Source: a candidate division WOR-3 bacterium
GTDB lineage: Bacteria > Hydrothermota > Tepidihabitantia > B3-TA06
NCBI GenBank assembly: GCA_016934635.1
Contig: JAFGSK010000071.1
Span: 1,294-65,293, forward strand
DNA: 64,000 bases
Reading direction: 5' to 3'
Both the position numbers and the translations under genes were made by a program. Shown here piece by piece: positions 53,207-54,901 of the stretch (position 1 is its first letter; every line of letters starts with the position of its first letter). The notes under the pieces are model-generated. The model did not search any database and had not been told where the DNA came from. It saw nothing but the letters and a program-made list of their open reading frames with translations.

Positions 53207-54901
53207 ATGTTGACACGCATCCTAATAAAGAATTTCAAAGGTTTGAAAGATGTCGATATCGAATTGGGTGAGGCAGTTGTTTTTATTGGGCCTAACAACT
53301 CAGGGAAAACTTCAGCTTTGCAGGCTTTGGCTTTGTGGAGTATTGGGGTTCAGCAGTGGATTGGAAAGAAAAGCGTAACTTCTCCAGAAAAACGCCCGGG
53401 AGTTACCCTCAACCGTAAGGATTTGATACAAATACCTATCCCTAATGCCAATCTGATTTGGCACAACCTGCATGTGAGGGGCATGACTAAACCTGTATTT
53501 ATAGATATAATCGTTGACGGCGTGGCCTGAGGTGTCCAGTGGAGTTGTGGTTTTGAGTTCTATTACGCCAACCCGGAGTCATTCTATTGCCGTCCGCTTC
53601 GTCTTAACGATGGCGGAAGTAAAAGGATGCAGGTTCCTCAAGAGGCCTCAAAAGTAAAGGTAGCATTTCTTCCTCCTATGTCAGGCCTAGCTGCGGTGGA
53701 ACCTAAGTGGGAACTGGGACGTGTTAACGTCCTCAACGGCGAAGGTCAAACAGCTCAGGTTTTACGCAACGTTTGTTATCAGATATTTGAGGAGTCCCCA
53801 AATGAGAAATGGGAAGAAGTGAAGGCCAAAATCAAGGAGTTATTTTTTGTTTCCCTTCTTCCGCCTAAATATGATGAAGTACGTGGTGAAATAACCTTGG
53901 CTTATGGGGAAGATGGTGTAGAGTTGGATTTGTCCTCTCAAGGAACAGGATTTCTGCAAACCCTTCTTTTACTTACGTACTTATATGCCAACCCAGGAGC
54001 GGTAATTCTCCTGGACGAGCCTGATGCTCACCTTGAGGTTCTTAGACAAAGGCAGACTTATCAGTTAATATCCGATATAGCCAAGAAGCAAGGATCCCAA
54101 ATCATTGCCGCTAGTCACTCAGAAGTGGTTCTTCAGGAGGCTGCCGATAAGGATATAGTTGTTGCCTTCGTAGGTAAACCTCATCGTATTGATGACAGGG
54201 GAAGTCAGGTTATGAAGGCACTCAAGGAGATAGGTTTCGATCAGTATTATCTCGCTGAACAAATGGGATGGGTTCTGTATCTTGAGGGGGCAACCGATTT
54301 AGCGATACTGAAAGCGTTTGCAGAAACGCTTGGGCATAAGGCGTCTGAGTGTCTCGAACGTCCCTTCTTTAAATATGTAGGCAATAATCCGGATGAGGTA
54401 AGAAGGCATTTCTGGGGTTTAAGAGAAGCTAAAACTGACTTGGTCGGGATTGTTGTTTTTGACCGCCTTGATCGTACATTGCCAGATGATTTAGGTGCGG
54501 TTGGTTTCCAATGGAAACGGAGGGAGTTAGAGAATTATCTGTGTATGGAGGAGGTTTTAATCGCATATGCTCGACAGGATTTACCCAACGATCTTTTTGG
54601 GCAAGCCGAAGCGAGTAAACGTGAGACGATTATGCAGGAGCTTGTTACTGATTTTGTACCTCCGGTAGCCTTGAGGGATAAAACTCACCAATGGTGGTTT
54701 AATACAAAGGCAACCGACGATTTTCTCGATCCGTTATTTGAAAAGTACTTTGAACGGTTAGGGCTTCCGAATCTGCTTAGAAAGTCCGATTACCATATCT
54801 TGGCGAAGTTAGTTCCGAAAGATAAAATCGATCCCGAGATTATCGAAAAGCTAGATGCAATTGTTGAGGTTACACAGCAGGCAAAACCCCGCTCAGACTG
54901 A
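53207..54901 (+). pseudogene. OLD-family/AAA_15-like ATPase with C-terminal Toprim/DUF4435-like domain, interrupted by one in-frame TGA at 53528-53530 (pieces 53207..53530 and 53627..54901 share one frame)
   Basis: N-terminus IKNFKGLKDVDIELGEAVVFIGPNNSGKTSALQAL (Walker A of OLD/AAA_15 ATPases). After the TGA the same frame continues with no further stop: GVQWSCGFEFYYANPESF... through SQGTGF signature, Walker B ILLDEPDAHL and H-loop ASHSEV. C-terminal VLYLEGATDLAIL...VVFDRLD is Toprim-like. Confidence 0.6.

Follow-up and report, generated by a model that had tools for sequence, protein, structure and literature searches.

A gene for a predicted OLD-family ATPase–Toprim nuclease, at 53207-54901 on the forward strand of the 64,000-nucleotide stretch of DNA analysed here (the window), is interrupted by a single in-frame TGA, and we consider this stop most likely to be a recent nonsense mutation in an otherwise intact, vertically inherited gene, whose product would be truncated after residue 107. 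Nonsense mutations are common in accessory nuclease genes, and the interruption is an ordinary one that matters little on its own; another member of the family, at locus L063, is interrupted as well. What the gene brings into view is the family itself, a large group of proteins annotated simply as ‘AAA family ATPase’ that we read as OLD-type ATPase–Toprim nucleases, with a nuclease domain that is invisible to the models of Pfam, NCBIfam and PADLOC.

The gene spans 565 codons in one frame, with the internal TGA (53528-53530) as the sole interruption besides the terminal TGA. In the list of open reading frames it appears as two same-frame pieces, 53207..53530 (107 aa) and 53627..54901 (424 aa), and the 96 nt between them hold no stop and no in-frame ATG, GTG or TTG either. 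The first-pass annotation had described such a single TGA between two same-frame pieces, which translation, the list of open reading frames and a second assembly all confirm. This is also the only interrupted gene within the window: a scan for long same-frame pairs of open reading frames returned four other cases, all of them spurious overlaps or ordinary adjacent genes. The pair at 35531-36979, considered as a second broken gene, was rejected as two ordinary genes. The strong promoter claimed earlier was found as well, and both its hexamers and the Shine-Dalgarno sequence are kept in L002, the sole relative whose upstream region is aligned. The signals and parts of the gene are as follows:

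53159..53186 (+): sigma-70-type promoter-like site, TTGACA-16-TAGAAT, matching at 11 of 12 positions
53191..53196 (+): Shine-Dalgarno AAGGAG, read from the sequence, 10 nt 5' of the ATG; the core AGGAG is kept in L002
53207..53527 (+): N-terminal 107 codons with the first strands of the ATPase head and Walker A GPNNSGKT (53288-53311); AAA_15 at residues 1-42, and SMC_N; G28, G33 and K34 invariant in alignments
53528..53530 (+): premature in-frame TGA at codon 108, in a variable surface loop; relatives have AAT (Asn) here
53531..53626 (+): stop-free stretch in the same frame, codons 109-140, with invariant W112, C114, G115, E117, F118, C128, R129, P130 and R132
53627..54241 (+): remainder of the ABC-type ATPase, with the Q-loop region, signature-like LSSQGTG, Walker B LLDEPD (54008-54025) and H-loop SHS; AAA_21 at residues 228-309, invariant columns and a match to 6p74 (TsOLD)
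54269..54541 (+): Toprim core, a four-stranded beta/alpha fold, with conserved E360 (54284-54286), D364 (54296-54298), D419 (54461-54463), and E440 and E442 (54524-54532)
54548..54901 (+): C-terminal helical region after the Toprim core (helices H124-H218 of the domain model), with the normal TGA stop (54899-54901); the C-terminus coincides with that of homologues

Domains of the joined product

Read through the stop, the joined product carries an N-terminal ABC/SMC-like ATPase with Walker A, Walker B and H-loop motifs. It matches AAA_15 (1.7e-21) and AAA_21 (3.5e-18) in Pfam, and in PADLOC the generic ATPase parts of AriA, NsnB, GajA, Old and PtuA; the best profile match among PDB sequences is TsOLD from Thermus scotoductus (6p74, E 1.5e-16). 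The earlier assignment to an OLD/AAA_15-type ATPase is thereby borne out on all three counts. NCBIfam gave no match near its curated cut-offs; MADS3 scored best, with 49 bits where 420 are required. In an alignment of 89 sequences, G28, G33, K34, E271 and H304 are invariant and D270 is nearly so (at least 90%).

The C-terminal half is recognizable through its fold. Searched alone, its 248 residues found no match in Pfam (DUF4435 included) or PADLOC at a threshold as loose as E <= 10, and its profile gave a chance match only against all PDB sequences (E 0.39) and a non-significant hhalign alignment to phage P2 Old (E 0.13). The full-length family profile aligned modestly with P2 Old by hhalign (E 7.8e-5, probability 62%), with the signature motif, Walker B, H-loop and Toprim strand beta1 (VLYLEGSTD / VLLVEGKTE) running collinearly. 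A full-length model built on the 89-sequence alignment has a mean pLDDT of 93.5, and a Foldseek search of solved structures with it places TsOLD 6p74 first (E 1.5e-15) and GajA next, so that the comparison with Class 1 OLD and GajA proposed in the first-pass annotation favours TsOLD both by profile and by structure. Modelled separately, with substrings of proteins from the homology searches, the C-terminal domain finds OLD Toprim domains as its fold matches, AriB best and Class 2 C-terminal regions also among them. The Toprim-like C-terminus suggested earlier therefore stands at the level of the fold, where Foldseek matches it to OLD Toprim folds, and fails at that of the sequence models in Pfam and PADLOC.

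Candidate catalytic residues are strongly conserved. D364 is invariant, E360, D419, E440 and E442 occur in at least 90% of the sequences, and in the model the conserved acidic residues sit just after beta1, beta3 and beta4, with about 110 residues of helices following the core. The ‘DxD’ proposed earlier corresponds to D419-R-L-D422 and holds for its first aspartate, since conservation across the family covers D419 and does not extend to the second position (D-R-L-x). The two-metal acidic set of OLD Toprim domains comprises the Toprim glutamate, the DxD and a metal-B Ser/Glu pair, and TsOLD carries both metal A and metal B residues (PMC7049728); the acidic residues of AriB are E26, D30, D88 and E122 (PMC11464382). 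Judged from the alignments, the acidic residues of the family appear to share their order and spacing pattern with the metal residues of AriB and TsOLD. The sequence matches and the models lead us to predict that the protein is an OLD-family ATPase–Toprim nuclease.

The family and its locus in related genomes

A word-indexed homologue search scored at least 8,000 candidates, each at E <= 0.001, of which the top 120 are single chains of 560-642 aa with 62-84% identity, apart from one (P0003) that is the window's own 424-aa fragment. An exhaustive search of representatives yielded 481 clusters (50% identity) at E <= 1e-30, and in 185,579 species-representative genomes we confirmed at least 519 loci, the best 80 of which, with 53-71% identity, are spread over many bacterial phyla and include one Bathyarchaeota MAG. 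Homologues in the alignments run uninterrupted through the break, as do 79 of the 80 loci kept from those at least 519. A family that is naturally two separate proteins parting at this point, a possibility raised by the first-pass annotation, was thus rejected: homologues are single chains that span the break. The exception among the 80 loci, L063 6001-7722 in a Desulfatiglans MAG, has two in-frame stops near the C-terminus (…YDLA-stop-YVPVDKLDPEIN-stop-KLD…) and is an independent pseudogene of the same family, in which pseudogenes thus arise occasionally.

A conserved partner gene was sought in the same 80 loci and none was found, with no neighbour family present in more than 7 of the 80. In roughly one-fifth of the family loci, the direct neighbours are SNF2/ResIII helicases, N6/N4 DNA methylases or DUF1156 proteins. 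This context, of a restriction-modification or DISARM-like kind, is the sole and indirect evidence, by association, for a role in defence. At L022 2940-9793, an SNF2-family helicase, the family member and an N6/N4 DNA methylase stand in a row with very short spacers, and arrangements like it with ResIII or DUF1156 occur at other loci; in some genomes, the family may be part of a multi-gene system of this kind. Collections of phages and plasmids, which are biased to cultured hosts whereas the family comes from uncultured lineages, held no true family member. At L004 14936-16737 (-), in a member of the Phycisphaerales, a pair made up of an AAA_15/AAA_21 ATPase (390 aa) and a DUF4276 protein (210 aa) forms a second OLD-like ATPase module about 5 kb from a family member (P0074).

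In three related Stahlbacteria-like genomes, the gene is intact at the same position, and the window itself is probably derived from a Stahlbacteria-like organism too. L002/L003 and L007 share a gene order of LVIVD, a 572-aa gene, the intact OLD-type gene, GT2, AP endonuclease, RecR, YbaB and DnaX, and the same order surrounds the 576-aa, intact and 76% identical homologue P0002. L007, a Candidatus Stahlbacteria MAG, encodes an intact homologue at 71% identity, and the short contig L006 (84%) holds a 577-aa upstream gene, the intact OLD-type gene and the end of the GT2 gene only. Between the window and L002 and L007, the neighbours are 76-79% (GT2), 71% (YbaB), 63-68% (RecR), about 65% (AP endonuclease) and 60% (DnaX) identical, and within the clade the OLD-type gene is as conserved as recR, ybaB and dnaX. 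Synteny and conservation at a housekeeping level make the gene an old, vertically inherited resident and no recent arrival; in this lineage it behaves as a stable core gene. The comparison of orthologous loci that had been suggested thus found intact relatives, and it speaks against the earlier description of the site as one where defence islands lodge, as three related genomes (L002/L003, L006 and L007) carry the intact gene in synteny. An unrelated second lineage, the Dehalococcoidia MAG at L043 (4153-6699), also has a family member some 2 kb away from RecR-YbaB-DnaX. With two such lineages among the 80 loci, this could be coincidence, or it could point to a connection with DNA maintenance.

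The immediate neighbours in the window are a CarboxypepD_reg protein and, downstream, a convergent GT2 glycosyltransferase. The former is the gene previously taken for a TonB receptor: an adjoining gene is there, and it matches CarboxypepD_reg domains only. This 695-aa protein (50862-52949, -) is absent from the syntenic L002, L006 and L007, and in L002 a terminator-like GC hairpin occupies its position; in this lineage, its gene was inserted immediately ahead of the promoter of the ATPase gene. Farther upstream, 45191-50785 (+) holds three tandem paralogues (567, 588 and 587 aa) with no Pfam family except a weak CARDB match. L002, L006 and L007 have a single copy of 572-577 aa at this position, which makes the three paralogues a lineage-specific expansion. 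Elsewhere in the window, two very large adjacent open reading frames (1792 and 1937 aa) overlap by 8 nt at 4743-15927 (+).

Origin and consequences of the internal stop

The break falls in a loop where family members differ and carry indels. In the window the sequence is GTG GCC TGA GGT GTC CAG TGG, where L006 has GTG ACC AAT GAT AAA CAG TGG and L002 has GTG ACA AAT GAT AGG AAA TGG; over the four codons around the TGA, 8 of 12 nt differ from the relatives, with a 24-nt indel immediately before them. The stop column is occupied by N, E or H in homologues, and never by Cys. Inside the gene, 16 nt before the TGA, is a promoter-like ATGACT-17-TATAAT (53483-53511, +; 10 of 12 positions), with its -35 at the junction of the 24-nt indel and a perfect TATAAT -10 in this genome only. 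A weak GGAAG stands 7 nt before ATG 53627.

Apart from the stop, the gene carries no sign of decay. Pairwise dN/dS is 0.05-0.07, and outside the loop a parsimony count with L002 as outgroup gives nonsynonymous/synonymous changes of 43/78 on the window branch against 34/80 on that of L006 (Fisher p = 0.40). In the 89-sequence alignment, 59 columns reach at least 90% conservation, and the window's product departs from none of them. With a pairwise dS of about 1.1, the window branch is a long one, on which relaxed selection would in any case not show in a pseudogene of recent origin. From these counts, the stop would seem to be young relative to the long branch, or an error, or to sit in a gene that is still selected; the complete absence of decay and the intact expression signals are equally compatible with an error or with a gene in use.

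Three explanations had been offered for the stop, namely an inactivating mutation, a sequencing error and programmed read-through, and the first fits best, with homologues uninterrupted and the remaining gene undecayed. We think it unlikely that the TGA stems from an error of sequencing or consensus, or from a minority variant in a mixed population, with the true gene of the organism intact. Such an origin would account for the pristine state of the rest of the gene, with no conserved column violated and no nonsynonymous excess, and for the intact promoter and Shine-Dalgarno sequence, and the contig is known from one sample only. The same base calls recur, however, in a second assembly: the 27-kb Logan contig SRR13394437_473200 equals window positions 43627-59099 at 15,473 of 15,473 positions, the TGA included, and the gene caller there also splits the gene into 107 + 424 aa. 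Because the contig boundaries differ, it is a second assembler that reproduces the stop over these 15.5 kb, which makes an error of sequencing or consensus less likely. The TGA also differs from the AAT of the relatives at all three positions, amid real substitutions and away from any homopolymer, and no further gene in the window is broken. Programmed recoding, whether as selenocysteine or through a genome-wide reassignment of TGA, is highly improbable and has nothing in its favour beyond the in-frame TGA itself. No Sec insertion element was expected and none was found: the fold of the 81 nt around and beyond the TGA is no more stable than that of shuffled sequences (z = 0.77), with no hairpin after the stop, Rfam has no match in 52900-55100 except a chance one (E 0.42), and the homologues' lack of Cys at the site argues in the same direction. 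The window contains no tRNA gene. TGA is a normal stop here, as the first-pass annotation had noted: it ends 14 of the 38 long open reading frames in the window and the OLD-type gene itself, where its terminal TGA aligns with the C-termini of homologues, and an alternative genetic code was rejected on these grounds.

We also regard it as improbable that the gene is still used, either through UGA read-through (as Trp) in a tolerant loop or through a 424-aa Toprim product started at ATG 53627 from the internal promoter-like site, acting alone or with the 107-aa fragment. The position of the stop in a hypervariable loop with indels would suit the former, as any residue there is probably tolerated and leaky read-through could leave some function; selection is not relaxed, although the long branch would hide relaxation in a young pseudogene. 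For the latter there are the internal promoter-like site with the weak GGAAG before ATG 53627, and the activity of the isolated TsOLD C-terminal region as a nuclease in vitro (PMC7049728), whereas about 3.5 promoter-like sites are expected by chance in the scanned region at the same threshold, and no homologue is split or has a stop at this site. Initiation at 53627 would leave out Walker A as well as codons 108-140, with their nine invariant residues and two ATPase beta-strands, which makes a working two-piece enzyme unlikely.

Under the nonsense mutation that we favour, a vertically inherited, chromosomal and standalone OLD-family gene would have gained a TGA at codon 108, in a variable surface loop. 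In the full-length protein, a two-metal Toprim nuclease at the C-terminus would be under the control of the N-terminal ABC/SMC-like ATPase. With promoter and ribosome-binding site intact, translation would now stop just past Walker A and release, as its main product, a 107-residue fragment without Q-loop, signature motif, Walker B, H-loop or nuclease, leaving the gene knocked out or nearly so; full-length protein would be made at most in traces, through ordinary near-cognate read-through of UGA. OLD-type ATPase–nucleases are usually anti-phage proteins, and the family may likewise be an ATP-regulated nuclease against phages or other foreign DNA.

Relation to known OLD systems

Class 1 OLD proteins (TsOLD 6p74 and phage P2 Old) are the closest relatives by sequence and by full-length fold, and the gene stands alone as theirs do, with no recurrent neighbour family. 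Class 1 proteins have a compact Toprim domain without an extra C-terminal helical domain (PMC7049728), unlike the family model with its helical residues after the core. By gene context the protein would thus belong to Class 1, whereas the modelled shape of its nuclease domain is nearer to AriB and to Class 2 C-terminal regions, which have helical domains as well.

Gabija GajA, of Class 2, would be expected to have a UvrD/PcrA-like GajB directly downstream. Here, no GajB/UvrD-like helicase adjoins the gene in the window or its relatives and no partner is conserved across the 80 loci; the convergent GT2 glycosyltransferase occupies that position instead, in the orthologous loci as well. Class 3, the retron effectors, also differs, with no reverse transcriptase among the called neighbours and no Rfam match around the gene beyond the chance one.

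For PARIS (Class 4; AriA with the AriB Toprim nuclease, occasionally fused), the evidence points both ways. AriB is the best fold match of the C-terminal domain, whereas a search with the full model does not bring up AriA among its first 50 fold matches; DUF4435 finds no match in Pfam, the C-terminal half alone finds none in PADLOC, and the PADLOC AriAB model matches residues 242-446 only (5.9e-18). The glutamate that follows the conserved Asp of AriB by two residues (E90) has no acidic counterpart in the family. A trigger, a hexameric propeller or a tRNA target would be hypothetical for the family.

Cran1 of the Sulfolobales (Class 5; PMC12796447) resembles the gene by its pattern of inheritance, as a stably inherited chromosomal OLD gene that is no island passenger; here, the gene adjoins dnaX and recR and is equally conserved. 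Unlike Cran1, the family is patchy across phyla (at least 519 of 185,579 species genomes), a poor fit to an essential housekeeping gene.

The function of standalone OLD proteins is listed as an open question in reviews (PMC10568477). With its striking conservation across phyla and core-like inheritance in one lineage, the family is a reasonable candidate for studying it. As a tentative proposal, it may be an unusually slow-evolving and uncharacterised clade of single-chain OLD proteins that joins a TsOLD-like ATPase to an AriB-like Toprim domain missed by HMM libraries, and that reaches over dozens of phyla, an archaeon among them, while being fixed next to recR-ybaB-dnaX in Stahlbacteria-like genomes. 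Its members would possibly be one-protein, PARIS-like cutters of RNA or tRNA, or Cran1-like enzymes of DNA maintenance in place of defence proteins. In the latter case, the strain with the broken gene would lack that function as a natural knock-out.
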